From Raillietiella orientalis (lineage: Eukaryota), in contig JAYWIR010000017.1 of NCBI GenBank assembly GCA_036172245.1, forward strand, positions 2,232,001-2,296,000: 64,000 bases of DNA, in the 5' to 3' direction. A model generated the notes under the pieces. It did no database searches, was not told where the DNA came from, and saw nothing but the letters and a program-made list of their open reading frames with translations. Below are positions 1 through 56,193 of this stretch, one piece after another. The stretch's first letter is position 1. Each line of letters begins with the position of its first letter. A program made the translations under genes and the position numbers.

Positions 1-105
1 ACTGCAGGAATTCACGACGGGAAGCCTCCTGCGGCAGACTCCCACAGTAGGCGGATCGGCGCGGATGCGTGCACGCGCACGTGTTCTGTGATCTTGGATA
101 CTCAC

Positions 106-3100: not shown

Positions 3101-6100
3101 CAAAAGGGGATGTGCTCTGCATCGTGCTATTTCGAAAAGCTGAACGATAGCGCATGCGCTGAGGCGAACCACCCGATACTTGCACAAAAAGTCCTGCAAC
3201 AGGGCGTAGGTGGATCGCACACGAAAGCAGCCGCCCAAGGAGGAACAAGAGAACCTTTTACTTGATGCCAGCGCGTGGTCCCTTGGTGTCGCACGTGCAG
3301 TTTCCGCCCAAAAATACAAGGATGCTGCGAAGAGCGCACACTTCAAACGTCGTGCCGGACCCAGTTTTTGACCGAGGAGGGAAGCGGCCGAAGGCTTCGT
3401 CAATTGCCTCGGAGATCGAGCAGAACAGTTCTCTCGGATTCTTCCACTTTCAGGATGGATTGAAAAATTCATCCACGTCAGAGCGAAGCAGCGGAGGATG
3501 TACTGCACCCGCTGGGAGAAAGGGCGAGCCCCAGAATATACACTGCGGGTGAGACTCCGAGATGCTCGTTCGTGCACCCCCCCTAGCAGGAAGAGGAGTG
3601 AAGTCGTAATTTAGCTTCCCACCGCCACCCCATTGCTCCAAACTTCGGATGGGGAGGTCGTTCTGCTGTGTGCATGCAGCTGTCTGGAATGCCGTGGACA
3701 GTGCGCTTCCTGTTGGAACTGATGGCGCGAGCTTCGGTCTCAGGCACGTCCCGTGCCATCCTTATCAAAAGAGTCAATGGGCCCACTCACGCTGTTCTTC
3801 AAAGAGCAATGAGGTCCTCTTTGCTGAACCTCAAAATAGAGTCGGGAAGTGGAGCTTCCCCGCGTCGGCTGGAGAGTTCCAGAGCCTTGAAGTTTCCTGG
3901 ATTTGTGGCAACTGAAGACAGAGACAAGCGGACGCGTCCCCCGCATTCTGGATAGGACAGTTTCCCTTGCTCAGTTGCGCCTCTGGGTTCGAAGAAGGAT
4001 CCATCCTCTCGCTTTTCAGGAAAATCCACGTCTTTCCCAGACGTTCTTCGAGTTTCGTTCTTGTCGCCAACTGTTCCGCCGACGTACGAATCGAACGGGC
4101 ATTTTCCCCGCCCATCTCGCGGCAGAATTTTTCAGAATTTCGGAGCAAACACAAAAAAAGTCAGATGCATTCTACAGGCTGGTTGCATTTGCAACCTTCA
4201 GGAATGCAGAAACCGAGCGACGAATTCACACTGCCGGCCCTGAAGGAGTTGGCGTTCTAACCCACGTTGTCAGCCGTGTTGTTGCGGTCTCCGCGCCTGG
4301 GTTGCGGGTTCGAATTCTTCCCTGGGAGAGATCGACGCCAGAGAAATGGGGATGCTCCATGTGGGTTTCGATTCCCCCCCACAGGATGACGCTGGCTGAT
4401 CCATAGACTGCTGGTCGAAGCAGGAAATCAGATTCGCCTGCTGACTGGACGGGATCGGAAGTTGACCATCCGGGGTCCTTCCAAAAACAAAGGAGCTGGT
4501 TGGTTTTCTTCGGGACTGTTTCCCGCCGGTTGTAAAAATGGAGCCATTACCATGGGGCTGTTGAGGGTTTGCCTCTTCAGAGTGGCAGAAGCGCGCTGCT
4601 CCCTTCGGGACGCGCCCTTCCGAGAAACTGGCAAGCGTTCCTTCGGGGTTCTCTTCAAGAGAGCAGGAAACCAGGAGCGGTTCCCTTGCGAGCCTCCGTA
4701 GAAGAATTCCAGGAGTGGATCCTTCCCTGGTTGTCTTCGGGAAAGCAAAAGAGGATCAACCCCTTCCAGAGAGAACAAGGAAGAAGAGGGGCTCCTGTAC
4801 CAAGAGGAAGGGAGGAATGGACTCCTTCCTTTGGAGCCCTTTCTGAATTCATAGGGTGGTCCCTCCGGGATCACCTTCGAGCTTGAAGAGTGACATGCCC
4901 CTTCAGGTGGCCTGTGGACTCAAAGAGCTTTATGGGTTCCCCTAGGGGATCGAACGTTTCTTGAGTATTTGGCGGACCAAAAAAAAAAAGGGAACCCGAA
5001 CAGCGTTCGCGCAGGTGCGAACGAAACCGCATCTTTGAACGAGACGATTTGATTTTTGAAAGACGCCCAGCCGTCCAAAAAAAGGGAGGAGGGAGGAGGG
5101 GGAATATACATCCAAGTGTTGCTTTCGGGAGGACTGCACTTGGCGTTTCTCTGAAATTCCTGGGATGCTCTGCTCCGAAAAACAGAATAAACGCACCAAC
5201 GCAGGTGAGCAATATAAAGCTCACCATCTTCCTGCTCACTTTTTGATCCCGAACTAATTTCCTTACGTAGCAAGTCATTTTTGAAACTTCCAGAAACAAC
5301 CCGCCCTAACAAAGGATTCCTTCTGCGAGGAGCAGCAGCAGATCTTTCTGATGATCTTTTTAGGGAGATCAGCGACCGCTGTTAGGATTCCGCAGATGGC
5401 CGAATGGGACACTTGTTCCTTCAGTCTGTCAGCTCGTGAGTGGGCGCTTATTGCAGCTCATTTAACCGGAAAGCACACACAGTAGCGAATCGACACACAC
5501 ACACAATGCGCACGCGCAAAAGAGCAGGAAATGGTACGAACTTTGCAGCAACAAAAGATAAACAGAAGGGGAGGGGGAGAGAACGTCATAGTCACCTTCA
5601 TAGACGTTCGGAACGGAGTCCCCGAAGTACAAGAGCGCCGGCGTTTTCTTGATCCCGAATTCCTGAGAGAAGTATTTGTCCTGAGTTTTGTATACTTCAA
5701 TGTTGTGCTTGAGAATCCCATGCTCGATGTTGTGGAGTTTAACCAGCAGCCTTTCGCATTGCCTGCACCCCGTGTCTTGATCTGGGAAAAGGTTAGAGTT
5801 TCAGCGGCAAGATGGAGCAGCGCGCGTCGTTGTGCGGGCAACTGAGGTCTTAGGCAAACGCGTGCTACGCATGGAAGACGCGCAAAGGCCTGATGTCGCG
5901 ACGGTCGGCCAAAGCCTCTCTTCTTGGTGGGATGAGAGGGCAATGCAGGGCTCGGCTGAAGAGGGAGAAATCACGCAAAATGAAGGCTGTTCAAGAGATG
6001 TGAAAGGATTGTTCAAGACGTGGTCAGAGGAGACGCTGCTGAATAGAGGGAATCTGACCCATCCGCCGAGCTCAAGAATGCTCTTCAGTCTGCATCTTCA

Positions 6101-9100
6101 ACTACTCCAGTTTAGGGTTTTAGGTTTGTTTTTGCATTGTTTTTTGTTGCTGATATTCGCCCCGCATACTTAGTTTAAGAGCAAGGGGCTGTTGACAAGA
6201 AGGGTATACCCATCTTCATCTTGGGTCTGTTTACCATTTCATGCATCTGAAAAGTGACATTTTTTTTTAAAGCATGTCCAGGTACTTATATTTTTTCGCA
6301 CGGTTACTCAGGTGTAACGGTGGAAACGTGAGTCTCTTGGATGCTTCTGTTATGACGGAATCCAGGAGGGAATTGAACGTTCCTTCCTAGAGCTAACGTT
6401 TCCTAGGAAACGGATCCCATCGAACGCGGACAAGTACGCTTTCGAGTTGCTGCAGCGAGCGATTCATCACGCTGAGGCACTCATGCGCGGTGGCTGCCGG
6501 AATCTTCTTGCGTCGCGTGCACCAAAGAGTCGATAGCAGCTTCCCTTCAGCATTCGGATCTGCAGCACCAGTCTTCTCCCTTTCCAGGCCACGCCCGCAT
6601 CAACCGCTGATTCACTAATACTGTTCTTTTCACTTGAAAATGCACTATGCGTTCCACCGTGTGGCCTCTCCCAGGCGCGGGCAGTCGAACGCCTGCTTTG
6701 CCAGATCGCTTGAGCTCATATGGTGCCGCGGGGCGTGTCTGAAACCGAACGGGAATGACGCCACAGTGCCTGGCTCCTGCCACTTTCGGACCTGCCGACA
6801 GGTTCGCCCGCTTAGCCAAGGACATCTGCCTTGACGACTCGTTGCTTGGAACCCCCCCCCGCCATTCGTGTTCCATCAAGGCACCGAAAGAGCTTTTCCT
6901 TTTTCCTTCTCCGAAACGAACCCATGATGATTCTTCGTCCGCCAGGTTTTAAGGTGCGGTCATCTCACATCTTGGGCGATGCTGTCAGCTCCATTGCTTC
7001 CCGCAGGCTTTTGTCAACAACGTGTGTGATCTGGAGTGTAGGTGTGTAGGCAGTAACCCCAGGTGTAGGCGTTTTTCTCCCTCTTCTTCTTCTTCCTTCC
7101 ATATTTCGAACATGTTCCAGGGTCGTTGTGTTCTAAACGAAACGATCGCGAAAGTTCCCGCTCACGAGAATGCCGCCTTCGAGTAAGGAAGGATGTGGAA
7201 TTCCAGGATGGGGATCTGGGAAACAGGTCTCCTTGCTCCCTTCGATCTTGGAGATCTTCTGCTTGTCCCTACCACTCCCTCTTCCGTTTCTTGCTTCTTT
7301 CCTCCTCTTGGCCCTTTCGTCATACATAACTGATTTCTAGTTCCACCACGGTGGTTGTGTGTCTGCGACGGTCTCCTAGCCTGGTATCCCAAGCGTTGAG
7401 GGTTCGAATCCCTCCCTGGAAGGGATCGACGCCAGAGAAATGGGGGATGCGCCATGTGGGTTTCGATTCCCCCCACCCGTAGGATGACGCTGGCTGGCTG
7501 ATAGACTTGATGGAAGAAGGAAACTAGATGTCCATATTGACCGGCCGGGATTGGAAGTTGACTCTCCGGAGTCTTCCAGGAACCAAGGAGCCGGTTCCAT
7601 CTGGGATTTCTCTCCAGCTGTGAAAATGGAGCCGCTACCATGGTGCCTGTGAAGGCTCCTGCTCCATCTTCAACCAGAAGAAGGGTATCCCCGGTGTGGG
7701 GTTTTGCTACCATTGCACGACCGGATGGAGAACTCCCTATTTCTTGATTCCTGGAGGGACCCGAAGGTCAACTCCCCTCGGGGGTTGTCTTTCAAGAGTG
7801 TTAATAGCGCTGCTCCCTTCGGGGAGCACCCTTCAGGGAAATCAGGAAGCGTTCCTTCGGGGTTCTCACCAGAAGAGGAAACCAGGAGCTGCCCCCTTGA
7901 GAGTTCCTTTCGGAGAAGGAATAATGAAGTGATCTCCTCCAGGTGACCTACCCCTCTGGAGAGAATGAGGAAGGGGATAGTTCCCTTCGGGGTTCCCTCC
8001 CAAGCGTGAGAGGAACGGAATCCTTCTTCCGAAGCCTTCCTGGATTCACAGAGGGGTCCCTCCGGGATCATCTTCGAGCTTGAAGAGTGACACGCACAGA
8101 GGGTGCGTGGACTGTGTTTAAAGAACTTCTAAGCCGCCCGTAAGATGAAGAACCAACAAGCTGAAAACTCGAAGGTGAAAAAAGAAAAAGAAAAAAGCTG
8201 GAGGGAAAACAGCGGAAACGGAAGAATCCAATAGGATTTCCATCATCGTGGGCCGTCAGGAGAACGGGGAAGGATACCACGGGATGGTAGTTGGTGTCGA
8301 TCAACAATAGAACTGTTCATTAAGACCGAACCTGGTCCAGAAGAAGGCGAATCGTATGCTTATCCCTTGGTTGGGACAGAAAAAGGAGTGAAAGGAAAAG
8401 CTTTTAGTCGCGAACACCTTTCGCAAAATATGAATGTTTTTTAACCGCTGGTAGTGTTTGCTTGTGTGTCTTGCTCCGAACAACATACCTCCGCTTAGCA
8501 AAAAGAGCTATCGTGGACCAGCGGAACGAAAACGGATCTCTTCGACATCCAACTTCAACTTTAGGATTCTTTGCCGATTTTTTTCCATTAGAAAGACCGA
8601 ACAAACCTCCGTTTCTTCCCGAGGCAACTGATTACACATCAAGACCAAAGCACAGATTTTAAGTTAGGGAAAGAAGATGAGATACTGGGAGCACTGGTCA
8701 AGCGACAGAAAGGCGCGTGCTCCTTGCGAAATCCGTGCTCTCTGATGTTTTCAAGCTTTTCGGAACTACAGGAGATCGGGAACGTGGAATAACTTTTGAA
8801 ATCCCGCATATGGATGAGATCACACCGAAGTTCCAAAACACCTAACAGAAGTTAGACGGCGAAAACCCCAGCTGTCCGAACCCGATCCATCTAAAGCCTC
8901 CCCCGCATGGACCGAGCACAGAAACGTGCCTCTGAACGGCTTGGCGCCGCAGGACGCGCGACTGCCCGCCATCCGATGTGCAGGCATTCCGGTGCCGTCC
9001 GACGCTGCGAGAACCTGCTCCACTCCGGGAAACCTCTTTGCTCGTGATCGTACTGAACCCAGATGGGGAAACAAAGTTTCATCCGCCTGATTTTCACATC

Positions 9101-12100
9101 TTCGTGAAGACCGAAATGCAGAGGAGCTGCACGGGTGAGCAGAGGACTGCGTCATCTGAGCGGAGGACTTGCGACCGCAGAGGAGGGTGTGAACGATTTC
9201 CGGTTTCAAAAGCGCGATCGAATGAATTCGAAGTACGACGCGAACCATCAATCAAAACAGTGAAAGCCGTTCAAGGCTGCATGCAGCATCCCGTCCATGA
9301 CGACCATAGCAACGTCCAAGCTGGAAACATGGTTTTTTAGAACAAAACCTACCACTTCCTGGAGAAATTCACACAGGAATAAATACTTCTTGTCAGATCC
9401 TTGAAAAAATAAAAAGTTCGCGGATGCTGTGATGCAATTTTTTTTTTCAGAACATGTGGAATTTTTTTCACTATTAATTATGAAGGATAAACAGGCGAAA
9501 TCACTAATCCAGCACCAATGAGCCGTTAGTTCCGAATGCATCTCTCACGCAATTGGATAAAGTGAACGAGCAACCGACAGTAGGCAAGCAGAAATTCATT
9601 AGGAAGAAACAGAGGCAGAAACAGTTTCACAGATGTGTGCTCCTCTCTGTTATTACTCTGCTTATCTAACACTTAAGGGAATTCCAAAAATTAGAGCAAG
9701 GAAGAAAAAAGATGGATCTTTTCTTGGACGTTTGGATAACGCATAGAACCCTGCATCCATCTTTTCTTGTTTCGTGAATACTCTGATGATTTCGAGGTGA
9801 TGCAGTTGCTTTGGAAGCAAAGAAGTGACCCGGTCTGGCTGCACATCAGCATGTAACTTGTAAGAGTGCTATTGCAGAAGACACCAAGCAGTGATGCTTT
9901 GTGCTAGAGGAAACAATGTCTTCTTATACTAATTGGGCAGACTACACGGAAGCTGAAAATTGGAGATTGGATGACTTTCTGAGACCATGGTAGGTTGGAA
10001 TTTCGGAAGACAAAGCAGAAAGAACGTGAAATCCTGCATCCTCAAAGAAGAATATTCAGCTTGTATAAGAACCCATTTAGACGAGCTACAAATCTTTCTT
10101 CTTCGGACCAGTAGTTCGAGCCTAAGGAGGATGGAAACGAAAATCATGAACCAAAAATCATTCTTCTGAAATAACACCAATGGTGCCTAAGGCAAAAAGG
10201 CGGCGGTCCATGTCGAATACGCTACTGTTCGCTCAATGCGTAGGAATCGCAATTCATCATGCAAGATTGCTATAATAGATAGAAAGAAAGATTATCGCTT
10301 ACATATAATGACGGCGAAGGATTGAGTTGTTTTTATCATTTCCAGAAGATCTTCCGCGCTTTTCTCGGAGATAGCTGACACTGTGGATGGGTTCTTTTGT
10401 GTTACAAGCCAATCCAGGATTTTTTCTTCTTGTTTCAGATCTCCTATTTGATAAACAGAGCTAATCACCTCCATGACATTAAGTCCCACGTGAGTTTGAG
10501 AAGGTTCATGTCTTACCTGCGTAGATGATCGGTTCTTCTTGCTTCCCTCGAAAGTACAGCAGCGAGGGAACAGCGTGGATTCCGTACTCTTTGGCCAGAT
10601 TGGTGTCGTCTATTTTCACAAATTTGATTCCTTCCCTGTGCGCGTCGTCATCGATGTTCTCTAATTCCTGAAGAACTTTATCGCAGTGTTTGCACTCTTC
10701 TTTATTATCTGCAAGTAATCGCTCGCTAAATTTTCTACGAGATGCATTGTGCAATCTCAGTTTTTTTTTTTTTCCTTCATTTCGGGAATTACATCTCATC
10801 AAACAGTCAAATCAGCAAATGCAAGATCAGTGCATGATGTGTCTTTGTGTCCGAGAAACGCGTCCAGAGCGTGTGCAATGAAGCGCTTGAGACGGCAGCA
10901 CTTATCAGAAAGCTGTTTCTTAAATCCGCGCCCTTTGGATAATGAGCTCCTTGCTTTTTTTTTTTGGCTTTCATGAGCACTTTCCAGTTGGGTTACCTGG
11001 GATGATGTGCTGAAGCTTTGCTGCCCTTCCTTTAGTTGGATGGCTTTGTGCAAGCAAGGACCGTCAGCTCGCGTCATCTTTCCACTGGTTCCATAGGAAT
11101 CGAAAGCGCACCGATGCTGTGGAAATCTCAATCACGAGAAGGTGCCATTCCCGGCGGCTGATGAATTTCTTTAAACGTCTTGGTGCGAAGTTCGTTTTCG
11201 GCCATGTTCCTTTTTGGCTGCCATACCCTCTTCCGGTAGACACCGTGAATTCCTTCACGGTTCTATCTGTTGTACCCAAGGAATTACCTTAAAACGCATC
11301 TTTTGCAACATTTTCTTTGAATACTTCCGCAGAAGCTTCTCGGTTCTCTTGACTCATTTATTTTTGCTCTATTCTCACGTGGCCTGTCACACCTCGCGAT
11401 TCCATAAGAGTGATTCAATGCTACATGAAAGGATGCCGTGTTCCAGCAAGAAGATGTTTTGTCTAGCATTCCTTTCAGAACAGGGCTGGCGCAGCCGTGT
11501 TTCCAATCGATCATCTTCTCGCTGATCCCACGAGGGACATCGTGAACACATTCAAGCAACTGTGCTCTACACGTTTGTGGTTACGTGCGAAACGTCTTCA
11601 CGACTCTGGATTCTTCTCGACCACTTGGTAAACCTCCCTCAGAGATGCGTTTCTGAAGGAACGACCCGCTGGTCCTGCCTTTCCAGATGCACTCGCAAAA
11701 TTTAGCTTGGAGGCTGCCAGGAGGAATCGGTACCAAAGTCAATCTATTAGAACGTGATGCCAACTCATAATGCGTTTATTATCTATTAATTGTGCTTGGA
11801 TGAGGCCTCTTGAGAAAGAATAGATTCTGGTGAAGTCTGTGAAGCCTCGAAAGAACGACAAAATAACCTGCTGCAGCTTTATCAACTCAGATTACACTCC
11901 AAATCATTAAAAAAAAAAATTAATAAAAACTCTGTGAGAACAGATAGACCCAAGTAATCAGGGAACAATGAGTCCAAGTGAGGAAGACAAGGAAACTGCC
12001 AAAAAAAACAGAATGTTAAGATGGTAAGATGAAGTCAAAGAAAAATCCTGCAGCCGGTGCGGTTATTGTCACGTAAAATCTTCTACAGACTGAGTGCCGA

Positions 12101-15100
12101 TCAATCCTAGGGATTCCCCACACTTTTCCCTTTGGACCAAGGATGCTCAGATGATCGAATTGCCATTAGACGAACAAAACTGCATTTTTTTTTTAAAAAA
12201 AAAAAAATGAATAAATAAATATTTGCTTATTCATCGACATTTCACCTATTCGAGCATTTATTTTATCGTGTACAGGCAGTTCCCGATTTACGTTCCCGAG
12301 TCCCGTTCCTGGAGGTCGTTCGTCATCTGTCTTAGTTTGTTGTGCGTCAAAACAGCCAAGTGTGCACTTTTTGCGCACACGGTGCGATCCTATATGTTGG
12401 CGGTCATTTTTACATATGAAAAGCATTGCATGAACCATCGAATGTGTATTATAACGATACTCCACGAACGTGCAATAAAGTTGAAAAAATACCAAGAGGA
12501 AACAAGATACAATAGTTGATAGTTGATTTTAATTGGAGACAGTTAAACAGAATTACATAATGTATTATGCACATGCGTGTGAATTCAGCTTTGATTTGTC
12601 CACGTTTCCAACAGTGTGCGTTATTTTCACATGCGTGTCACTTTGGACACACGAGGTGGGCGGTTGAACTTCTCTTGAAACGGCTGCGGTTGCTTCGTCC
12701 ACTCTTTTAAAACCAGGATAGATCGGACAGGAGATTGCACGGTTCGTTTCCTTTTTAAAAACGTAAGAAAAAATCGCATCTCAGCGAGTCAGACAAGAGG
12801 CCTCTCTTTCCGCTCCCGCCATTCTCTCCAGATCCTGTTCTTCGAACATCGCCGAATCCCTCCGAAATGAATATGAAGAGCCGCAGCCACGTCCTGCGTC
12901 GTGACTGTCCCGGAAGGATGCGAAATGTCAAGTTCTTCTGATGCTCCTTCTGTCCTTCGATTCGCTTCTAGCGCTGTCGGCTGCTCGTTCCTCAGGATGC
13001 GGCAACTCTCTTGCATCCGCCGGGTCAGGGCCCGTTTGACTGCCCATCTCCACGGCCGCAGATTCCAATGGTTCCCCGAAATCAGTGAAACTCTTCGCGG
13101 ATTGAGGACACGAGTTTTTCCACACACTGTTTCGGTTTGTTTCCTTCACATCCTGTCGTATTGAGTAAGCAAGTTTAGGGCGTCAGCAACCTTACAATTA
13201 TGGTCGCTGTTGCCTGCGTTACGCACATGAAAAAAAATCTTGAAATTGTGGTGTTCGTTGTAGCGAATGTTCGTACATCGAGAACTGCCTGTATTAGGAT
13301 CAAAAAACAAACGAGGGATGGTGTGTTATGCAAAAGCAGAAATTCTCTGCGAAAAATCCTCACATTCCTCTAGAGGAGATCTTAAAGTGTAGCAGCAAAA
13401 TGTACACTTTGGGACCGAGGAGAGAAATTGAACGTGGCGGTTCCCACAATTTCGAGAACGGCCGCATGGGAACGAAGGAGCTACCTGGAAAAAATTATCT
13501 GCATTGCGACTCCGTTCTTGGAGAATTTTCTTGAGAAAAATTTTCGAGGGTTTCAGAGGATTCGGCTGATCCAAATTAAGCCATTGAGGCTGGCCGGTGT
13601 TTGGGAGGGGAGGGAAGAAGTCAGGTATTTCGAGATGCTGCTGCCTCCAAGCGAAAGGCTTAGATGCACAATCCCATAAGTACCATGTGCACAGGGTCAA
13701 TTCTCTTTAGATTCGCTCTTTGTAAATAACCACGCCGTAGTGACCTTGGCTCCTGCATCTGAGCTTTCTTGAGGTCCGTGCTCGCACGCAGCTCTGCAAA
13801 CATGCTCACACCACGAGCGAATTCTGCACAAGTATAGAGTGCTTCTTGAGTGTTCGGTTCAGTCCTCAAGCAGAAAGAACTTTGAACCTGGCGCTTTTCT
13901 TCTATTTTCCAAGAAATCTTCTTATCTTAGATGCGAGCCTATTCTAGTTGGGGATTCTCGTTTACTTCCCCTGCGTAGCTCCCAGCGCGGCGGCCTTAAT
14001 GAAGTTCGTTCCTCTTTGACCGTGATTTTCATCAGCTACTGATTCCAGAGGATGTTTTTTTCCCGAAAAAAATCTTCAGACTTCTGAACGCTGCTGTCGA
14101 AGGTTCCATCTAAAAATGGTCCAACTTGAAATCGTTTCCTTTTCATAGGAAGCATGAATTTTCTTCTCGTTTTTGGATCTCCGGTCTCCTCAGTCTTCGG
14201 TCCTCGGTCCAGATTCTACCGCCACCTCAGCCAAGTTCGATTTGCGTCGAAGATACTCTCAACGTGGATGGATGTTTGGAATCCATTTTGACTGTGTGCA
14301 ATGAGCATCTTCCTTCCGCACTCATCATCGAGCTACGGAGGATTCCTGATTTTCCCGATTCATTCGCCTGGGCAAAACACTCCACAGTTATTCCGATATG
14401 AATCCCTTTCCCCTCCTCCTTCCTCGTATGCAAAGCATCTCGTTCCTTCCTGAGTGTGTTCATTCGGCTGCAGCTTGGCTGACGTGAGTACTCGACGCTT
14501 CCCTTGATCTCAGAGGTTCCGCATCATCACCTGCCTTTAGGGGAAGAGGGTTGCTGAGTTAACTTCTACACTCGCATCCCCACACGGTGCCAACGATCCT
14601 CTTCGCTTCCCCACGGGCGCTCGCGCGCGTACTAAAAATAAACCGCGGCGGCTCGCCACGCAGCCGGGTTCGAACCAACGGGGGCGGCCGCGCGTCCCGT
14701 CGGCGCTGGGGCGCGTCTCTCCCTGACGCCGAGATTCCCGCTGACAGTTTCTGCTTCAAGGGAAGACAGTTCGGGGGCCCACATCCATGGGTCCCGCTGG
14801 AAGCCCCGAGTAGGCCCATCCGAAGGGCGCCGAAAGGTCTGCAGGCTTTTGCTGGCTGTCATTCTCGGCACGGGACGACTGGCGCCGATCCGCGACGGGA
14901 ACGAGCTGTCGCGCGAAACGCGGAGAGGAGCGAAGCGATCGGGTTCGACTCCCGCAGCACGTGAAGAAGAGAATTTATACCCACAAAACAAGATCGCCAC
15001 ATAAGCATATTTTTCCAAGAACCTCTCCAGCATTTTCCTGTTCACAGTTTCTATGCTATCGTCGAGCTCCATGTTGGTGGGCTCCGTGAGCCACTCGAAG

Positions 15101-18100: not shown

Positions 18101-21100
18101 AGAATTCCACTGGAACTGAGGAGGCTGGAAAGTTCTCAGTGGAGCACGAGAAAAATTGAATTTTCTTTCAATCCTTTGATTTGCACTTGACCTCGTTTCT
18201 TTTCTTCAAGTGACCTTGGGCGTTATCCGAGAAATCCTTGCGCTTAGCCGCATTCAGCATTTTTCATGAGTCAAGGATGTATCACGAATGAAATAAACAA
18301 AATCAACAAAGGTCCTTTTCTGTTTTCTCATGTCGTGGACTTCGAGGTCCTTCAAGTCCAGACCTTCATAGCTCAGGAATCTTCAGGAGATTTTGAAAAT
18401 CTGGAGGCGATTTCTGTTTTTTTCTATAAGGAGTACAGAACGCTTGAATCCTTGTTGCCACTACACTGAAGAGAAACAATCGAGAAATTGGTTCTCTCCC
18501 ATCCTTTGGCGAAGTCCGTCTTCGATTTGTATCCGCATCTGTGCGTAAGACATCCCTTGAGAATAGCTCGGGCGCAGCCTCGGTTCGCAAAGATTGCTCC
18601 GGAATTTTTCTGATCGCAGGCAGATTGTGGATGGCTTCGGCAGATTATGTGAGACACAAGGACCACATTGAGAAGAGTAAGATGGACTTGTTCTTTCAGG
18701 GCTGATTTTGAAGCTCTTGCGGCAACCTCTTCCATCTTAGAATCCCAGGAAGTTTTAAAAACCCTAAAGCATGTTTCGGTTCCAGGAAAACTTTCGTCGC
18801 CAGAGATTCGAGCCAATAATTGGACACGAATAGGGAGGAGGCGGAACGAAAGCAGGAACCAACTATCAACAGATGAGGGGAGCTGGATGCACCAAACAGG
18901 GATAGAACGAGCTCATCCCTGGAAAGAAACTCGAAAGTGCAACCAGGTGGAAGTAATCTGCAGCGCGGCTGCCTCCGGAAACTGCACATCTCCGATCAGT
19001 ACCGTCCACACAGCCAGCAACGTAAGTCCACACAGGCCGCGAACATGCTAGCTGGGGGCAGCTCACAGCAGCATGGCCGTGTGAATCGTGGATTCCACGC
19101 GAGCGGCAGCATCTTCGTTCGCATCCGTGAGCTCGGTACGAGGAGCAGCGCGCTTTCAAGTTCACTAGGGCAGACCCAGGAAACAGCGGAACCTGAGCAA
19201 ACCTCCAAGGGGAGAATCGCGGTGCTCGGTGCATCGAAGCACTTCCATCCAGCAGCCCGGCGGGAAGTCATCTCTCGCGTGTGGAGCGCGCGAACTACGC
19301 GTGCAGAACGAAAACCACCTCACCGGTTCGCGCGAATCTTCGCGGCCAGTCTTTCGGATTCTGTTCTTCCCATTCTGTCTCTCCTCCTTCCAATGTCGAC
19401 CAACTCACAGGAGGGAGGAGATCCCATGTCTCCTGCATCACCTCCCAGGATCGAAGAAGCAAAGAGGAACGCGAAAATGGAAAAAGAGACCTGGGAAGTC
19501 GAGATACCGATTACAGGTGAACGGCACAACGTGCTTTCTGTGAGGGCACTTCGGGAAAACTCCATTCCAAACCGGTGGAGCTTCCCCAAATTATGGATTC
19601 TGAGGTGCTGCACTGCACTTTAGAGCTGTTAGGACGAACAGAATTGGCAACAGGCAGTGGGCATCATTGTGCACATGACCTAATCTGATAGGGTTCATGA
19701 CATTTGGGGGAATTCATTAAAGATGTGTTTTTAGTGATGCAGGCATCTGTTCGAATCAGAAAGTGATCAACAATGAAGGCCCTATCTGAATGATACAATG
19801 AGGCTGTAGGAATCAAGTCAGCAGTGGCAGTGTAGGATTCTGGAGGGATGTCTTAGTTACGGTAGAATTTGACAGAACTGTTACTTTTCATTCCCGAATG
19901 GCTTTGATCCAATTCCAGCATTTTCATTTTGGACGAAATTGTCCCTGGTCAAACTGGGAACACATGTTAGATAAGCTGTTTGCCTCAGAAGGCACTTCAC
20001 AGAATCTTGTCTGGCTACTGCATCCAAATGCAAAATTTTAGCATTACAGGACTGTATTGCTGCAAGAATCAGCGCAACGTTTCCGGGATGTATCTTCAAA
20101 TATGATTATTCTTCCCAGAAGACCTTCCATGACATTATCTTTGGAAGAACCAGTTGGATGCAGTAGATCAATTTCTTGACTCTTTCCCCGCTTGTCCATC
20201 CCTGTGCTAGTAAATGCCACAAGCCTCTCAAAACCGGAGCTCATTTTGCCGCTGATCAAGTGTGCAGGGGCCAGATTGCAGCATCGAACCTTCCGACCTT
20301 GTTCTTCAGCAACAAGCATGAATGAGCAAGAAAAAGGAGGAAAAAAAACGTCAGTTGATGTTCGGGTGGGCTTTCGAAGTTCCCGAAAACTCTAATTTGA
20401 GGGCATTTCAGCTTGGAAACTCCGGAACAAGGGAAGGAGACAAAGAGTTTCCAGGAAGCATTCTAAAATTTGAAGAAAATACGCAAAAAGTGGAATTTTG
20501 GAAGGAAGAGAAAACTGAATTGGAGAAGTCACGCTCAACGGAGCACATTAGGAAATTTCTTGAATTGCGTTTGCTCGGACTTTCTGAAGCTTCTTCCCGT
20601 TTTTTTTATCTGGAGATGTATCGTGGCTGCCAAACGTACAAAGCCTGCAGTCTCCAAATGCATGGTGATGCAATTCGAGCTTCAAGCATCCCTGATAATT
20701 GGGAGCTCCTGAAGCACTACGGTGTTTCTTTGAATCAAGGGATCTGTTTGCTTAGAGATCTGGAGAGGACTCTTGCGCGTGAAGAGCAAAGCACACTGGG
20801 ATGAAAAATTTGCAAAACGTCGTTTTTGTCTGGAAGCACAGTATTACGGGAAAAACTGCTCCCAAACGGAATTTAGCATCAGTATCTGTATAAAGAACAC
20901 GAAAGGATAAAAATAGGTGCTCGCTTGCCTATTCAGGGGGTAAAGGAACATCATCGGAATGCAGATATGGTGCAGGGTTTTCAAACTTGAAAACCTCATA
21001 GGTGAAAGCCGAAAGAGACACGATCTGTGCTGATTCCGGACTGATATTCTAGACCGCGATCTCAGTCTCCAAGGAATGCAACAGAAAAATGAAAATAAAG

Positions 21101-24100
21101 TGTTGCTTGATGTGCATCACAGTACGCTAAGAGGACCACAAAGCCCTTTCGGGAATGCAAAAAAAACGAAAAAACAAAAAGCAGAGCACAGCATCAGAGT
21201 ATAAACACTGGGGATCGAAGAGTGAAGTTCAAGAACTTCGAAGACAAACGGAAGCAGGGAATCCGCCGCACAGCAGCATTCGACCCGGAAAAAGGGATGA
21301 CTGAAGACAATCAGAAGACGTTTGACGGCGAAGCTTCAAGCAGTCGGTTTCTCAGAGACGGAAAATCAGGAGATGCAAGAGGAAGCTGACCACACAGTTT
21401 ATCAGCACGAGCACCTAGATAAAGATGTGACCTGGATGCCCGATGACTGAAGTCGAAGACAAGTGGTGTGCTGTGAAGCACGGAACCATGAAACATACAG
21501 ACACGTTACCAATGGATTCCCCTTGCGGAATTCAGTGCAAGAACCAGATTCTGGACTTTGAATACCAAGTAAATTAGTGGTTGGTGATTGAAGTTTGGTA
21601 AGTACAAACTGCTCATTACGGAATGCCCACATTTAATTGCATGTATGAATACCGTGGATAACGAATTGGGGCACGGGACCGTAAACGTGATAGAGTTTTC
21701 CAAGACAAGCCAGAAGAAACCTTCACTCTTCCAGATCAGGCTCACAGAAAAAAATGCTTTCGTCCTTGCTTTTCGCTTATCGGGAGTTTCCAGATTATGT
21801 TTCTTAGGTTCCACTTCAAGAATTAATAGGCATTGATTCATCTTTGTAAGCGCATCTCTCTTTATGTCTCTCTTGACCTGGAAGTAACCACTTTTGTTTA
21901 CAACTAAGCACCCGTTGTAAACAAAAGGGGTATTTGAGACCAAAGCTGTAAACAGTTTCAAACAGCTCCATTCTCAACATCTGGATTCGAAGATTCCTTT
22001 TTTTTTACTCTCCTTCGAGTTTGCTCACAGCAGAAGGAAACTTCCAGGAGGAGAGAAAACACTGCTGCTCGAGGCAGATTCCCTCAGGAACGAGTACGCA
22101 GTCACGCACCCCTTAGGTTCAATTGAGAACACTTAGGTACTATAGCCCGAGCGACTTGACACGGATCCGTCTGGAGGCAAGCTTTGCGGCGAAACTTAGA
22201 TGCTTGAGGGTTTTCAAGGGGACCACCCTCGTAGATACGATAGTTGAAATCGCATCCTGTTTCTTCCTGCTGGAAGGTATTGAGTGGCTATCGTTCCACT
22301 CCTGACCTTCAATGGCGGCCTCCGGTGGAGTCAATCAGCGAGGGTCCTCGCAATGGGTACCCAAGAGGGTCCTCGCTAGTACAGAGTGAGCGACATGAAA
22401 ACGAGTTGGGCTTTGCAGAGAAACGCTGCGGGGCTCGATGCAGGCGCGTTTTAAGTGGCTCAGCCTGAGGAATTTCTTGAGTGCATTCACACTGCAGAGA
22501 CACCTTGCGTAAAAGCTCGTTTCGAAGACCGTCGGTACAAGACAAAGAATGAAGGATTCAGGTACTCGTAACCATCACCACAGATCATGCCTTCCTCCTT
22601 CCAAGAGAATACGCGCTTTAATTGGCACCAGCAACTTTAAAAATTCTTGCATCGTATTCAGCATTCTTGCATCGGCAAAGCATGCAAGAAGCTTACCTCT
22701 TGCAAGAAAGCTGCAAGCAGCACACACGCACACACATACACGGGCGCACATCGTTCTCATGAAGCACTGCGGACGCCAGGCAGAGAATTTGCATTCAGAG
22801 GAACTGCGGAATCGACTTTTGGTTCTTCTTCTTCGTTTCGGATTACGGTGCAGCAAATGCGCTTCCAAATCCACACTTACAGAAAACCACAGCAAAGTAG
22901 TCCTTCTCGTTCACCAGCCTTGTCAGCATAGCACGATCGATGCTCTCGATGGAGTCGGATTGTTTAGGATAAAGGATCCATTCCAAGAGGTCGTCTTCGT
23001 TGAAAGAGTCGCCTGGAAAAAGCGGAACATTTCGGTGCAACGGTAGCAGAGGGATGACGTACCTTCGTAGATGGTGAGTGACCCGTCCTGCAAAAAGGCG
23101 ATCGTGGGTAAGCTGTCTATCCGGAACTTCCTGATTATCATCTGGTTGGAGGTGTGCAGTATCTCGATCTCGTTCTGCCTCGCTTCTTCTGCTATGTCGT
23201 CCAAAGCTTCCATGATCGAGTTCCACTCCTTGTAGGCGCTGTCATCTTATGTGCCAGCTACGTGTTAGAGAGGAATGCAGGTAGCGACATCTTTCTTACG
23301 GAAGAAGATCACAGCTTTCTGCACTTTGTTGACTTCCGATACGGAATGTAGCTCTTTTATCAGAAAGGTGTTGTCATGAGTTTTCAGGTGGAGTATCCAC
23401 TTCAAGATCGTTTGCTCGTCCAGCAGGTCACCTGTGAAAAAAAAATGCAAGGGCCTGAGGTGAGCCTAAGAAAACTTGGACACTCAGCAACATGAAAAAA
23501 AGACTTTCCTGCTCTTTTATCGCGTTCCGAAAAGGGGTCTGGTTTCTACGGGTGTTCGGAATCTTTGGGAGAAACCGAACCTAAACGGTTCCCGCAGGAG
23601 TGGTGATTGCACATGCGCGACTTGCCTTCGTACACTTGCGGCTCCTGCTTCCTCTTGAAGTACACCAGAGCGGGCAAAGTGTCCAGCTCGTAATCTTGTT
23701 TCAGGAGCTCGTCGGAGGTCTTCACGAACTCGATCTGCTCGCTGTCACACTCGTCGTCAATGTTCTCCAGCTTATTGAGTATTCTGTGGCTGTTTGGATC
23801 GTTCCGTTCATCTGCATCGGGAGATGGGAAGTTATTGGATCATACACTCTGATTTCACGAAATGGGAGACTTACAGAAAAAAACCACAAGGTCATTCGCG
23901 TATTTTATCTTTTTCTGTAGTCTTTTCCTGTTTACACTCTCGATTCTGTCCTCTACCATGAGATTTCTATCATCTGTGAGCCAAACGAGAATTTCGTCTT
24001 CGTCCAACAGGTCTCCTGAACAGAAAGATGTATGGCGTAAGACAACTCAGTTCTTTGGGAGTTCTCAGTTACCGGTAAAATGCAATGGATCCTGATTTCG

Positions 24101-27100
24101 GAAAAGCAGCAGAGCTGGGAAGTTCTTCACGTTCATCTTCTTGGCGAAATGCGTCTTGCTCGTGCTCACGAGAAGAATTTCGTGGTCGTCGAGTTCATCA
24201 TCAATGGTTTCCAGGTTGCGTGCGATCTTCTGACACACGCTATCCTGATGGCAATTCTGCCCACCTGGACATTTCATGAAGAATCAAAAAAGGAGTGCCG
24301 TTTGGGTTCTGGTGTCAGCTTCGGAAACTATTTCTGTATGTAGCATTACGATTAGAGGCTTGCGAGAATCTTAGATGTATGCAGGGAAAAGAGGATCGCT
24401 ATGTTTCTGTTGCAATGCTTTTAGAATATCTTCGATTAATTAGATTCGGCACTCAGGTACTGATTTTGCCAGGAGGTTACTTCGAAAAAATAAAAATAAA
24501 AATAATGCAAATCTTACGGAAAAATACGGCCACGTATTCGTGTTCGTGGATGATTTTCTCTAACATCTCGTCCGTCACTTCTTCTATCGTGGGGTTCTGC
24601 TTCTGGTAGATGAGCCATTCTAAAACCGTCTCCTCTTCACTCAAATCCCCTAAATATAAAGACCAATTAAGGGCGATCACGAAGCCTCAGCTTGCCTTCG
24701 TAAATGGAGGGGACCCCGTGTTCGTAGTAGACAAGAGCTGGAGTGACGGACAGCCCTAGTTTCCTGGCTTCCGGAACGCTGTCGACCATTACAAACACGA
24801 TCCCATGCTGGTCACATTCGTCGTCAATGTTTTCGAGCTCCTTCAGCACAAGCAAATCATTCTTGTTGCTTTCATCCACTAGAGAATAGAAAATTCTATT
24901 GAAAAATTTCACAAAGTGCTCTGTCTGTTTTCCAAAAAAAATTAGAAAATAAGAGGTTCCTTGGAATTCCACAAGAGATTCAACGAACTTTAGAAAGATA
25001 ATATCTCGAAATTGCAGCGAATAAAAAAAAACTAAAGTCATCTCGCTTTATAAGACAAAGAACTAGATCTTTCTTACTGAAGAGTGCTGCAACGTAAGGG
25101 AATCTATGGATTAGTTTCTGGAGCATCGCAGCGTTTATTTCCTCGATTTCATCCTTTTGAGTTTGAGCAACCAGCCATCGGAGAATTTCTTCCTCGTCCT
25201 CAAGGTCACCTGCAAACACATACGGTAAAAGCGCCTGGAGTTGCATTCCAATCAATGTTGGAGAGCTTTCAACATAATTCCGAGAAAAACTGGGCGTGCA
25301 TAGACCGGCATTCCCAGGATATGATCACAGAGGAGCCGCTAAAGGATTCCATAAAGTGCAACCTTGGTCTCTCAAATTGCTATCCTGTCAGCACGCGTGT
25401 CTGCTGGAAGGTGCGGACCTGCAGTTCGTTCATCCAAGGATCCTGTACGAGACCCGGAAGCACGATGGCGCAGGACACTGGGGCATTTCCTGTTATTCAG
25501 AAACGCGGCGTTTTCGATAGCGTTTGAAATGTAACGTTGCCACGCGTAGTCCTCACTGGAAAGTGGGCCAAGCGAGAGAATCTCTCGTTTGATTCGACTT
25601 CATCTGTTCCTCCTACGGGGAAAGGCAAAGATCCCCCCTCACATTCCTTTGTTTGAGAAGAACTGCAAACGCCACTTGGCCAGTGCCACTACAAATAAAA
25701 CTCAACCACATTCTGCCACGCAGGAAGCATCAATTCTGCTGAATTCGTTGGCGTCCGATTCAGAAACGACCACTTTCTATTGCTTCTACCTTGATGCAAA
25801 AGAGAAGTCGGTGCATCTCTTTTCCGATGCTGGTCTCCCCATCGCTACTCATTTCGATTAACCCACGCAGCAAAAGATGAGCAGTGTCATGAAGGTCCTC
25901 TGCTCCAACCAATCTCTCTCCCCCTTGCCTCAGATACTCCTGCCAGGACATCTGCTGCAAGAATCCTACAGCAGGGCGACGGGCGATACGCTTTCCAAGA
26001 CTTCGTTGCTCAACTGTCCCTCCTGAAGAAACTTTACGATTCGCCCCTGTGTCAATGCAGAATGCACACCCATCCACCCGATTCGAGAGCAACAGGCGTA
26101 GCTCACTTCTGCTCCTTTTTGTGCCATAACTTCATTGCCGCTCTCTATGCGTTCCTTATTGGAAAGAGGAATCGCTTTTCAAGGAACGAAACCACTATGC
26201 AAGGACTCGAAAGAGATAGCGCCCAGTCACGAAAGTCTCCGAAAGTTGCCCGATTTCCCATTGTCCATTATTATGCTGCAGTACCGAATTCTACTCTACT
26301 GACACGAATTCGAGTATTGGAAATACCCACGGTGTCAACTCTTGCGCATCGCAGGTACTCAGATGAAAGAACTTACCGTGGCCTATCACCGGAGTCGATG
26401 GTGCTACAAGAAACCAACTGGAAACCAACAGCAACCACCAACTGGAAGTCCAGTTGGGAAGTTCCTGGGCGCAACAGGCGTTCAAGGGCGGATTTATAAC
26501 GAGCAACACAATTTACAACGGTCAGAAAACCAAACAAACAACAGTTCCAGAAGCAGAGAAGATGAAAATCATGCAGGAAGGTTGACCACCACAAGCCCTA
26601 CTCAGCACACCTTCGAACTGCGTGTCGGTGGTAGCGTCCAAAATGGCAACTCTACGGATGAAACCATTTTGCTTCAGATAGTCCTGTTGGATGGAGACAA
26701 TTCCAAATGAGATCAGCTTGAGTCCGTTCCCCCTTTTCTGGAGCAGCGCCCCAAGGCAAAGAACCTTATACTTGCCTACGGAATTCCAGTTTTTCCAGAT
26801 GCAGTGGGATTTCGGTTGGGGCAGCTGTCTTTGAAATGCTGCTTCCGGCATCATTCGAATCATTTATTCGTGAAAGAAAGTTCAGATATGTTGTTCCTGC
26901 GGACAAACAGCTAAGTGGGTGTTCATCTAGAGCTCGGACGACGTTTGGGGAAGACGGGAATTGGAGTGGACACGCGTACTGATCCAAAACGATGAAGAGC
27001 ACCTCAAGCGATCGCTATGCTCTCGATGCACTTGTTCTTCTTTACTCGGTGGTTCAAAATACTGAACACGACGCCAGGTGGGTGTGCGTACCCTAACATC

Positions 27101-30100
27101 TAGTGCCATAGCATCTACGAATGCGATCGTGAGTAACCCCTGCGATCCCACTTCGCATCCAGATATCTTCGAAGCGTGCAGTTAGCAGGGACGATTAAGG
27201 GGAAACGCTCATCGCGGTATCGTTGCTGCTGTGTCTGCAGTGCAGCAGACTTTTTTCAGGATTCCAACCAGTGGTGCGAAAATTCCTCTCTTGCCCGCGT
27301 CGGAGGCTTTGTGGTTAAGGCTTCCGCGCGTGGCACCATGCGTCGCGGGCTCGAATGCACCGGCAGAAAGTGACGCCATTGCGTCGTTGGATTCCGAGTT
27401 TCTCCTGCAATAGCGCTGGTTGGCCTAATCATTCGGGAGTGGCACCGGCGGTGGATTAAGCCGTAGGTCCCCGATGAAGGCCGGAACAATGGGAGTCGAC
27501 CTTCGGGTCCTTCCAGGAAAAAAGGAGTGGGGAGTTCTTCCTCCTGTCGTGCAACGGAGAGCGGACCCTCCTCCGGGGGGACTCCTCCGGTTTCAAGATG
27601 GAGCAGAAGCCCTCTCGGGCACCTCTCCAGTTGTTCAAAGGAGCGGATCCTTCTTGTTGCTGGGCCTTTCCGAGTCATCTCCTCTTCACAGAGTGCAAGG
27701 AAGCAAGCGAGAATGATTCTTGCAGGGAAGCTGCAGAGCTCCTTCTGAGTTTCGGAAGCATCCCTTCGGGGTTCTCTTCAGAGGAGTGAACAGTTCCCTT
27801 ACGGGCTCCCTCCGGAGAAGAAAGTCCTGCTAGCGGATCCTTTCCGGGTTCTCTTCGGAGAAGTTGAAATGGAGAGGACAGACCCTCCCCATTGGAGGGG
27901 TGTCCCTCCGGAGAGAATGAGGAAGGAGATTCCCTTCGGGGTTCCCCTTCGGAGACAACCAGGGTGGGAGGTGCGTTCCCCCCATCCGGGGGGATCCCTC
28001 CCCAAGCGTGAGGGGAACGGACTCCGAGCCCTTCCTGGATTCATAGGGCGGACCCCATCCCGGATGCCCCCTATCCTGAAGAATTACACGCCCCCCTGCG
28101 GGTTGCCGCGGGCGGAGAGGCGTGGAAACTAAACAGCGTGTTTAAAGAGCCACGTGCACCGCGAGGCACGCGACCGGCTCTGAGGTACTTAGCGAACCAA
28201 AAAAAAAAAAACTCTTAAAAAAAAAAAAGCTGGAAGGAAAACAGAGAAGACAGAAGAGAAAGAAGAACCCAAGGATTTCCATCGTCCTAGGCCAACAGTA
28301 ACGAATTCCTCGTGGGGTCGCTACTGGCCTTAAAAAAAAAAAAAAAAATTTCTCTCCTTGTTCCAGTCACGTCTGCAATGGTGGTGTAGGCCCTCCCGAA
28401 GAATTTCTGATCAGAAGACCTCTTCGACCCTTCAAAATAACACAGGAAAGAGGAAAGGTTTTGAGTCCCTGAGCGGCTGCGAGCGCGGCCGTCGCAGTCG
28501 CCCTTCGAAACCGGGAGACGCCTCCCAAGTCCGCAAGCACGAGGAAGCGGATCGGGCGCTGCCCGAAACTTGCAGGTGCGCAACCGCCTCGAGCGGCGAA
28601 AGCCAAAGTAGGCTCTCTTTAAGACTTCGTTCTAACCGCTCTGCAAGTACCAAATCCCAGGGAAAAACGTAGGGACAGAGACGAGCAGAAAACGAGTCGC
28701 CTCCCACGCGTTCCTCTCGGCAGAAAAAGGGAATCAAGAAGACTACCTTCGTATATGTAGGGGACCTCCTTTTCGAAGTAGACCAGAACAGGCAGGCTAT
28801 CAAGGCCCCATTCCCGGCTTTTCTCCTCGTCGGAAACCCTCACGAAGGAAATGTTGTGCTGATCGCATATGTCATCGATCTTTTCCAGCTCTCCCAGGAC
28901 TTTCTTGCTCTTCTTGCTGTTTTCCGAATCTGGAAATTGACATCTCCAACAGAAGAAGAAGGAAAAAAGAAACAAACAAAAATGAGCTGCATGCAAAAAG
29001 TTCCAATGAGCCACAGCTCCGCTCTGGAGAAATGGGTTGATCGAGATCAAGCTTTTGCACAGAGGACGCTGTTGGCTCGAGAGGAATAGAAAGAACAAAA
29101 AAGGAAAAGAGAGATAAAGAGAAAGAGGAAAAAAATCCTTACAGAACAAAACGGCCAAGTGAGGGACCTTCTGCACCAAAATCTCGAACATCTCCCCGGT
29201 GACTTTCTCGATCTCTTCCGAATTCGCCTGCCGGATCAGCCATCTTAAGACCTCGTCTTCGTTAGCCAGGTCTCCTGCCATGGAAAAGCAAGAAAGTCAG
29301 ACATCTCGCCTGCTAGGAGCATCCGAAGCAGAGGAAGCATTCTTGGCCACGTGCTCTGGCAAGTGGATCGCGGACACACACGAGAAGTGCATCCATATGC
29401 AGCTTCCTTCTCCTCCCCCTTCTCCAGATGCTTCCGCTCTGAAAGACTCAGCTCATGCCTCATCGGTAACAGTGCTCAGCCGAGCTGGACTCTTGGGACA
29501 CAGGGAAGCTCTACACGCTGGATCACGAGCGAAGAAGAGGAGTGGCCGTCGTGGATTCACGTGAGGAAAAAGACTGTCTCAGAATCGCGCGCGCCCGTTG
29601 CGATGGGAACCAAAGGTGCGTAGCTTATCCAGGCATGGCGGCGGCTCAAGAATTCTGGAAAATCTGGAATTTCTTGCACAGAAGCTTTTGGGGATCAATT
29701 TGGGATGCCCTGATAGGAGAACCCAGACAAGGTTCATCGTGCACCCTTAGCAGCTTCCTACGAGGTTGAAATGTCAGAGAAAAGAAACCGGAGAGGCGAG
29801 TCGATTCGAAATTATTCCCAGAGGACTGTGGAGCTTGGGGGTTTCAAGATTGACTGGAAAGGTGGGTCAATTTTTTCGTTTTCGGAATTTTTGAGCTAAC
29901 TGGACCAGGTTGTGGACTTTGCTATTTTTAGACTTGTTTTCGAAGCCCTGATACTCGTGTCATCGGGAAAACTTGAGGTTTCTCCGAGTGTTCTTTTCAC
30001 TCCCTCTTCGTGAAAGGAGGCAACTGGACATCAGAAGACGGGGAAGGTGGTTCAAGGTCTGAAGTCGACGAGCGTTGACCATGCACCTTTGATGTCCTTG

Positions 30101-40492: not shown

Positions 40493-40800
40493 CGCGCTGC
40501 GAGGAGACGGGCCGACAGGCACGGTCGTCCTGGAAACTAGCAGAACCACGGGGATCGGGCGGAGGGGGCCCGCGGATCTGCGCTCAGTTCCCGCGCGTGC
40601 CGAGCGCCCAACTGCGGCGGCGGCCGCGCACGGGGTCGCGCGCGCGCGCGCGCGAGCGAGCGAACGATGGAGCGCGGGGGAGGACCGGGGGCGTGGGGGA
40701 AGGGAGAGCGTCCCACAGCCCCGCCCGCCTCCGCTCTCGGTGGCAACCCGAGCTCCCCCCCACTTCGCCGCCGAGGCGCCTTCCCGGAACGTCGGGCGGG

Positions 40801-40810
40801 CTATTTTTAG
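40801..40810. promoter_or_regulatory. MEF2 consensus site upstream of the hlk-like gene
   Basis: CTATTTTTAG matches CTA(A/T)4TAG. It is an isolated AT-rich decamer in a GC-rich promoter, about 310 nt upstream of the ATG. Confidence 0.5.
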
Positions 40811-55846: not shown

Positions 55847-56193
55847 CTTAACAGTTGCTTACAAAAATAGATATATATAAAAATACTATGTAACTTTATC
55901 AATGATAACTCTGAAAAGCACATGAACAAAACAATTGTGACTGCTTCAAGTTGTCATCATACCACATCAATTCAACACGCTTCGTTACATAAAGCAGCCA
56001 AAGTACTAACACTTAAAGGGCAACCCAAATCATTTTGTCGAGTTTTTTTTTTTTTTTTTCATCACATCACAACAGATAAAAAGGTTTACATTTTGAATAA
56101 TCGGGGAAGTAATTCGCAACATCTTGCCATTTTACTCTTAAGTTCACACGACCAACTTCCTTACAATTTGATTGAACAGTACTTTGGCAACAA

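Follow-up and report, generated by a model that had tools for sequence, protein, structure and literature searches.

What kind of sequence recurs three times in the introns of one gene of Raillietiella orientalis, with a B-box of RNA polymerase III (Pol III) type near its 5' end and an A-rich region towards its 3' end? The question is raised by a stretch of 64,000 nucleotides (assembly GCA_036172245.1, contig JAYWIR010000017.1, positions 2,232,001 to 2,296,000 of the forward strand), hereafter the window, in whose numbering all positions are given. Here three homologous sequences, copies A, B and C, lie in a gene of repeated thioredoxin-like units, and the original prediction took them either for an unusually long lineage of short interspersed elements (SINEs) whose RNA fold is under selection, or for an undescribed multicopy Pol III structured RNA. 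According to the analysis presented here, they are most probably three old, independently inserted copies of one non-autonomous, non-coding and SINE-like retroposon family, mobilised by a long interspersed element (LINE). They are ordinary repeat material and not a new structured RNA gene, and the family is SINE-like in its layout without being a SINE in the strict sense. This layout consists of a T-arm/B-box head with a second, incomplete one behind it, a GC-rich body (0.5-0.7 kb) with a conserved core, an A-rich linker, a tail module of about 60-100 nt and a poly(A) (Table 1).

The three copies are homologous on the + strand as originally proposed, with a mean column identity of 64% in their whole-length alignment, although the full collinearity also claimed for them breaks down in copy B, where the segment 7640-7790 is inverted with respect to C. 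Between A and B, BLAST yields blocks of 77% identity over 262 nt and 68% over 320 nt, and the blocks of copy C against the other two range from 72 to 89%. Copy A is at least 729 nt and copy B at least 909 nt long, and copy C measures 1051 nt including the tail and 1038 nt as far as a final run of 17 A (28332-28348). Homology starts sharply at a shared 5' position, with CCCACG at 4261 in A, CCACGG at about 7346 in B and CCCGCG at 27294 in C, and everything upstream is unrelated. At the other end, the A-rich 3' region and the continued homology of B and C beyond it, both part of the initial description, were recovered, 8185-8254 matching 28217-28293 at 74% in BLAST. The BLASTN search that had been proposed as a check, run within the 64-kb window, returned the three copies and no fourth one, as did a profile hidden Markov model built from the three-copy alignment, and neither internal tandem modules nor a tandem array were found in the copies.

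The presence of 3/3 copies in the same orientation in one repeated-thioredoxin gene, with A and C each about 300 nt from the next open reading frame (ORF) block on the + side, could also be read in another way, namely as a non-mobile intronic sequence that was duplicated together with host exon units, perhaps as an antisense regulatory RNA of the host gene. However, comparison of 1-2 kb on each side of every copy (regions of 3.8-4 kb) revealed similarity inside the elements only. Since the flanks are unrelated, duplication of the host's exon-intron units did not give rise to the copies: likeness is 68-89% within the elements, whereas similarity of the neighbouring exons is undetectable at the DNA level. 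The terminal features of copy C and the many diverged copies in a public DNA run, both described below, speak against this origin as well, and we regard it as highly improbable.

Hallmarks of retroposition are found in copy C, which ends in poly(A) and is framed by a target-site duplication (TSD), a 12-mer repeated with 1 mismatch that reaches about 15-16 bp once one indel is allowed. The original prediction had reported no such duplications, which the TSD search overturns for this copy (12-16 bp). A 12-mer with 1 mismatch would not by itself be rare somewhere in the searched flanks; what makes this one convincing is that one repeat lies exactly at the first homologous base and the other exactly where the A-run stops. 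A duplication that starts A-rich is the trace left by target-primed reverse transcription with a LINE endonuclease. A 3' A-rich tail together with a TSD, as expected of a LINE-mobilised retroposon, is thus present in one of the three copies.

That the family extends beyond the window is shown by one public DNA run which matches part of the element (share 0.05) and was compared with positions 1-20000 of the window at 80% likeness. Of its 83 contigs in this region, 10 are at least 99% alike, including two of 151 nt identical to 8174-8324 and 8428-8578, and for this reason the run probably represents the same species at low coverage, while 59/83 are less than 90% alike. The summed contig depth, which in a low-coverage run is not a copy number, rises to 43-51 at 8020-8038, where one variant is found in up to 12 contigs; further values are 29 at 4860, 7-15 at 4619-4621, 7554 and 7821-7838, and about 2 for the listed contigs over unique sequence. 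The genome thus contains many diverged copies at other places, and what they conserve best is the core at 8026-8095 and its equivalents. In two of the contigs the tail is connected to core-like sequence via an A-run (with a loose end at 8178), which suggests that shorter variants of the element exist. Contigs of the same run at 11901-11907 and 13102-13189 (depth 23.6, or less than 90% likeness) suggest other interspersed intronic repeats.

Taken together, the common 5' end, the poly(A) and TSD of copy C, the unrelated flanks and the many diverged copies sustain, loosely speaking, the notion of an unusually long SINE lineage. Probably restricted to its lineage and perhaps undescribed, the family nevertheless belongs to a well-known kind. 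When metagenomes were scanned with a 17-nt pattern from the core, the 96 loci returned included one chance-level 25-nt match to the copies and no relatives, and ARAGORN detected no tRNA gene in these loci. Two conserved motifs of the element are likewise absent from full-text papers, a weak negative given that consensus sequences are rarely printed in running text.

Several results weigh against a LINE-mobilised, SINE-like retroposon, the first of which concern the head. The tRNA-like head originally claimed holds as far as its T-arm/B-box is concerned, the hairpin being an exact consensus match in B with 1 mismatch in A and 2 in C, but not for any part of a tRNA beyond that arm. The Rfam tRNA model aligns to the head of B through its positions 46-63 of 71 only, i.e. 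an 18-nt T arm, with 14.2 bits against a gathering score of 29 (E 1.9). ARAGORN reports 0 tRNAs in the whole window at its default threshold and in the heads at default or 95% thresholds; lowering the threshold on the heads yields one 90-nt 'tRNA-Ser' at 80%, in B only, and seven mutually inconsistent calls at 60%. The + strand heads of A and B contain no A box within 2 mismatches, and the single match with 2 mismatches in the head of C is at chance level, as are such matches in the window as a whole (207 vs 217 expected). The second B-box-like hairpin that had been noticed in A and B is indeed there (GGGTTTCGATTCCC in both), and the two B-box-like motifs are spaced by 58-59 nt (4307/4365 in A and 7401/7460 in B), which is less than one tRNA length, hence the second head unit is at most a partial tRNA. 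No match to 5S or 7SL was obtained with the Rfam models at E up to 5-10.

The further points on the unfavourable side concern the ends, the abundance, the size and the partner of the element. Copies A and B have A-rich tracts (4979-4989 and 8178-8196) but no convincing TSD, so that 1/3 copies only has one; at 23-35% divergence this is not surprising. The copy number is only roughly bounded by the contig depth. For a Pol III transcript, a length of 1 kb would be out of the ordinary. Finally, among the 150/190 window ORFs scanned (1-41.7 kb) there is none with a reverse transcriptase (RT) or endonuclease domain, and no fragment of a partner LINE.

How far the family can be called a SINE may be judged against SINEBase, whose description, in the part drawn upon here, covers 175 families of 75-662 nt with a mean of 253 (PMC3531059). 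By the definition given in that part, a SINE is an interspersed, non-tandem repeat of less than 1 kb with a head at least 60% identical to tRNA, 5S or 7SL over at least 60 nt, A and B boxes being taken as an indication only (PMC3531059). The present copies resemble the complex SINEs described there in their head-body-tail modules, the 5' B-box/T-arm, a body whose origin is unknown, and an A-rich tail, and SINEs in general in being interspersed and non-coding, with a TSD in copy C (PMC3531059, same part). They differ in length, which also counts against the interpretation (0.73-1.05 kb vs 75-662 nt, with C at or over the 1 kb limit), in a head that matches the tRNA model over the 18-nt T arm only and lacks an A box, and in copy number, where 100 or more are asked for and here at least 12 contigs cover one position, depth not being copy number (PMC3531059, same part). 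The copies are interspersed and not tandem, as seen from the three dispersed locations, the unrelated flanks, the lack of a tandem array and the diverged copies in the DNA run, and by the proxies available (Rfam models and ARAGORN) their heads fall short of the identity to tRNA, 5S or 7SL named above. We do not file the family as a strict SINE because copy C is at or above 1 kb and all three lie above 662 nt, its head fails the tRNA proxies and its copy number is only roughly bounded.

Other known systems share single aspects of this layout. The Twin SINE of Culex has a head with two tRNA-related units, and is alike in the two successive T-arm/B-box-like hairpins near the 5' end of A and B; here, however, the motifs are 58-59 nt apart, the second unit is at most a partial tRNA, and the body is far longer. 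The hominid SVA is a long composite non-autonomous retroposon mobilised by LINEs. It compares with the present elements in being about 1 kb or longer, non-coding and modular, with poly(A) and TSD and a need for LINE machinery, but these elements lack a variable number of tandem repeats (VNTR) and any Alu-like or long terminal repeat (LTR)-derived parts, and no sequence kinship is expected. Published SINE central domains include CORE, V, Deu, Nin and Meta. SINE superfamilies with a highly conserved central domain are known, as described in the parts of two reports used here, and, compared with them by description only, the body stretch 8026-8095 with its equivalents is alike in being much better conserved and more abundant than other parts of the body (PMC11481361, PMC4758252).

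The weak tRNA identity of the head and its missing A box, as well as the length of about 1 kb, the poly(A) and the TSD, would also suit a deletion derivative or the 3' portion of an autonomous LINE without ORFs, in which case the T-arm-like hairpins would be coincidental. The rise in contig depth from 7-15 at 7554-7838 to 43-51 at 8020-8038 would fit 5' truncation, but can equally be explained by conservation passing the 80% likeness filter. Moreover, 3/3 copies begin at the same 5' position, and the B-box hairpin, exact in B and with 1-2 mismatches in A and C, is doubled in A and B. Neither RT nor endonuclease was found among the 150/190 ORFs scanned, nor any other domain in the copies. The minus strand of the copies carries long ORFs, a consequence of the purine-richness of the + strand; 21 ORFs of 95 or more amino acids overlap the copies and have no Pfam match, and mismatches between copies lack a 3-base periodicity (e.g. 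0.31, 0.30 and 0.29 by codon phase for A vs B). In view of the absent Pfam matches and the flat codon-phase mismatches, hidden coding in the long minus-strand ORFs was rejected, and the original statement that there is no recognisable ORF stands. We consider the derivation from a LINE unlikely.

It has also to be considered that the copies belong to a structured-RNA family with its fold under purifying selection, either as a long SINE with kept helices or as retro-copies of an undescribed Pol III RNA of about 1 kb. Measured against 20 dinucleotide shuffles per copy, the + strand fold is clearly better than expected in B and C (z -5.8 and -3.9), but not in A, where 3/20 shuffles are at least as good (z -1.09), so the initial description as heavily structured applies to B and C only, and there mostly for compositional reasons. 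Even the shuffled copies reach -0.36 to -0.39 kcal/mol per nt, compared with -0.29 for a control intron stretch, hence most of the 'heavy structure' is due to base composition (53-56% G+C, G-rich), and the high z-score of B largely to the inverted duplication of about 140 nt at 7640-7790. The + strand folds of B and C are 22-28 kcal/mol better than those of the minus strand, a preference in the folding model that would fit a + sense RNA and is weak evidence for it; the + strand is also the one that carries the A-tails.

Concerning covariation, the consensus fold that RNAalifold gives for the three copies comprises 189 pairs at -129.7 kcal/mol, i.e. about 0.37 of the mean single-sequence energy, with a covariation term of +3.54, which is a net penalty. 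Double-change pairs on this structure number 41 vs 21±3 in shuffles, an apparent excess that arises because the three sequences tested had also served to derive the structure. When RNAalifold was re-run as a control on 25 alignments with columns shuffled within gap and conservation pattern classes, the compensatory pairs were 36 vs 30.7±4.1 (z 1.3), while the consensus energy stayed well below the control (-128.1 vs -96.0±7.2 kcal/mol, z -4.5). The copies thus share inherited hairpins, some of them paired through double changes (e.g. C-G to U-A at alignment columns 256/263), but with three sequences there is no evidence of substitutions biased to keep them, and selection on the RNA fold, as initially supposed, is not supported.

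Two features of the sequence itself point in the direction of a structured RNA, namely that 8/8 + strand occurrences of CCTTCGGG in the window lie inside the copies, and that copy C has no T-run of 4 or more in 1051 nt (A has two, at 4504 and 5053, and B one, at 7702 inside the inverted segment). The latter is expected by chance in about 1 in 5 cases, by an estimate that assumes 20% T. Rfam 15, ribozyme models included, which had been suggested as a check, gave 0 families in the whole window at gathering scores and, with E allowed up to 5-10, nothing beyond matches below threshold and at chance level. An undescribed multicopy Pol III structured RNA is further opposed by the lack of a complete tRNA-type promoter and by large rearrangements between copies, and a fold-selected RNA family of either kind appears doubtful at best.

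The rearrangement in copy B is worth describing, as it gives the retroposon part of its hairpin-rich look. The strongest B/C match is inverted (7642-7776 of B vs 27623-27491 of C, 76% over 136 nt, E 5e-21), B also retains a direct, A-type copy of the segment at 7545-7650, which joins the inverted arm at GGTGCC (7641-7646), and copy A is without an inverted arm. From these alignments, B carries an inverted duplication of about 140 nt predicted to fold back on the neighbouring direct copy. The inverted arm keeps about 45 nt missing from the direct arms of A and B, and the duplication is either older than this deletion or derived from a C-type template. Fold-back duplication was also considered as a general source of hairpins, by scoring the 12 insertion rows of at least 15 nt, several of which overlap, for inverse similarity to their flank. 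Only the B insertion is clearly inverse-complementary (z 7.7); both rows of the C insertion (27939-27999 and 27947-27999) are marginal (z 2.6-2.9) and the remaining rows without signal, and the idea was rejected, as the process is clear in one insertion (B) only. The same fate met the body as one large ancient palindrome, suggested by a reverse-strand profile match (E 8.7e-7), for, the arms of B excepted, each copy matched its reverse complement in self-BLAST no better than did six intron controls. The hairpin-rich look is therefore due mainly to base composition, with a contribution from at least one inverted duplication of fold-back type, and is not demonstrably selected.

For a LINE-mobilised, SINE-like retroposon, the cycle may be envisaged as follows. 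Either Pol III acting on the internal B-box region or read-through transcription from promoters nearby would yield a + sense RNA; the RT and endonuclease of an autonomous LINE would insert copies of this RNA elsewhere by target-primed reverse transcription, using an A-rich target; and insertion would leave a poly(A) tail and a TSD of 12-16 bp. Judged from the alignment, the tail module at 28229-28331 is a candidate region for recognition by the partner LINE, and the hairpins may or may not have a role in the process. A bolder version, to which we assign a small chance, sees in the copies an undescribed class of T-arm-headed panarthropod retroposons of about 1 kb, whose master RNA would keep a defined multi-helix form, favoured on the + strand, because the partner RT or Pol III needs it, with helices added by fold-back duplication as in copy B.

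The host gene extends on the minus strand from about 74 to 40429. Its exon at 10509-10811 (minus) matches arthropod and tardigrade proteins of about 1,700 residues, named 'hulk' or thioredoxin domain-containing, and in a PDB sequence search also protein disulfide isomerases. Coding blocks were located by tblastn of three 'hulk'-like proteins against the window; among the matches listed, all are on the minus strand and none overlaps copies A, B or C, which therefore lie on the + strand between minus-strand coding blocks, antisense in the introns of the thioredoxin-repeat gene as first described. The antisense orientation of 3/3 copies fits the usual survival bias of intronic retroposons, although three copies prove nothing. 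The most 5' tblastn match (protein residues 20-54) is at 40325-40429, within a region (38000-42700) of 62-67% G+C with many ORFs overlapping on both strands, which is probably the first exon and promoter region of the hulk-like gene.

As to the surroundings, a CG-rich block at 14560-14960 adjoins a hulk-like coding block and has no similarity to the three copies; its two T-arm/B-box-like motifs are a palindromic GGTTCGAACC (14666) and GGTTCGACTCC (14942), the latter an exact B-box pattern, and the block may represent a further repeat of tRNA-related type. At 45354-51075 on the minus strand lies an afadin gene (RA, FHA and DIL domains); its best matches are arthropod afadins at 66-68% identity, which puts the organism in or close to the arthropods, with no close relative in the protein collection. 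Downstream of it, at 52000-56000, the G+C content falls sharply to about 30% with a strong negative GC skew. The CpG observed/expected ratio is about 0.86-0.96 in introns and in the whole window, and 0.66-0.82 in the three copies, values that give little sign of methylation-driven CpG loss in the genome.

Table 1. Position and properties of the repeat copies, their parts and the coding blocks of the host gene (MFE, minimum free energy).
Feature	Position	Strand	Basis and remarks
Copy A	4261-4989	+	Multiple alignment and BLAST; faint similarity on to about 5005, possibly to A-run 5077-5083; no clean TSD
Copy B	7346-8254	+	Alignment and BLAST; 3' end uncertain, may extend to about 8320; TSD candidate weak, unconvincing
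Copy C	27294-28344	+	Full length, poly(A) at end
5' TSD of copy C	27279-27293	+	AAAATTCCTCTC then TTG; abuts homology start
3' TSD of copy C	28345-28360	+	AAAATTTCTCTC then CTTG; overlaps last bases of (A)17
B-box/T-arm hairpin, copy B	7401-7411	+	GGTTCGAATCC, exact consensus match
B-box/T-arm equivalent, copy A	4307-4317	+	GGTTCGAATTC, 1 mismatch
B-box/T-arm equivalent, copy C	27348-27358	+	GGCTCGAATGC, 2 mismatches
Second T-arm-like hairpin	7458-7471 (B); 4363-4376 (A)	+	GGGTTTCGATTCCC; degenerate in C
Inverted duplicated segment, B-specific	7640-7790	+	Reverse complement collinear with C 27485-27630
Conserved core of body	8026-8095 (B); 4829-4898 (A); about 28026-28094 (C)	+	84%; best conserved part, most copies in DNA run
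Internal A-rich linker	8178-8196 (B); 4979-4989 (A); 28199-28228 (C)	+	Sequence and alignment
3' tail module after linker	28229-28331 (C)	+	BLAST and alignment; homologous to B 8197 to at least 8254
Fold, copy A		+	MFE -281 kcal/mol; z -1.09 (3/20 shuffles as good)
Fold, copy B		+	MFE -368.8 kcal/mol; z -5.77
Fold, copy C		+	MFE -413 kcal/mol; z -3.89
Fold, copy B		minus	MFE -346.3 kcal/mol; z -3.05
Fold, copy C		minus	MFE -384.9 kcal/mol; z -1.44
Hulk-like coding blocks, first part	74-700, 5588-5791, 10232-10775, 14938-15399, 22870-25303 (several)	minus	tblastn, among the matches listed
Hulk-like coding blocks, second part	28733-29278, 32347-33110, 35190-35639, 37353-37914, 40325-40429	minus	tblastn, among the matches listed

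In annotation, these stretches are to be masked as interspersed repeats of one family instead of being entered as structured RNA genes or antisense host-gene transcripts. The inverted duplication of copy B offers a concrete, small example of how hairpins can arise in the body of a retroposon without structural selection. Should the family be abundant and truly about 1 kb in full length, it would extend the length range of SINE-like elements and provide a lineage marker for a poorly sampled panarthropod.

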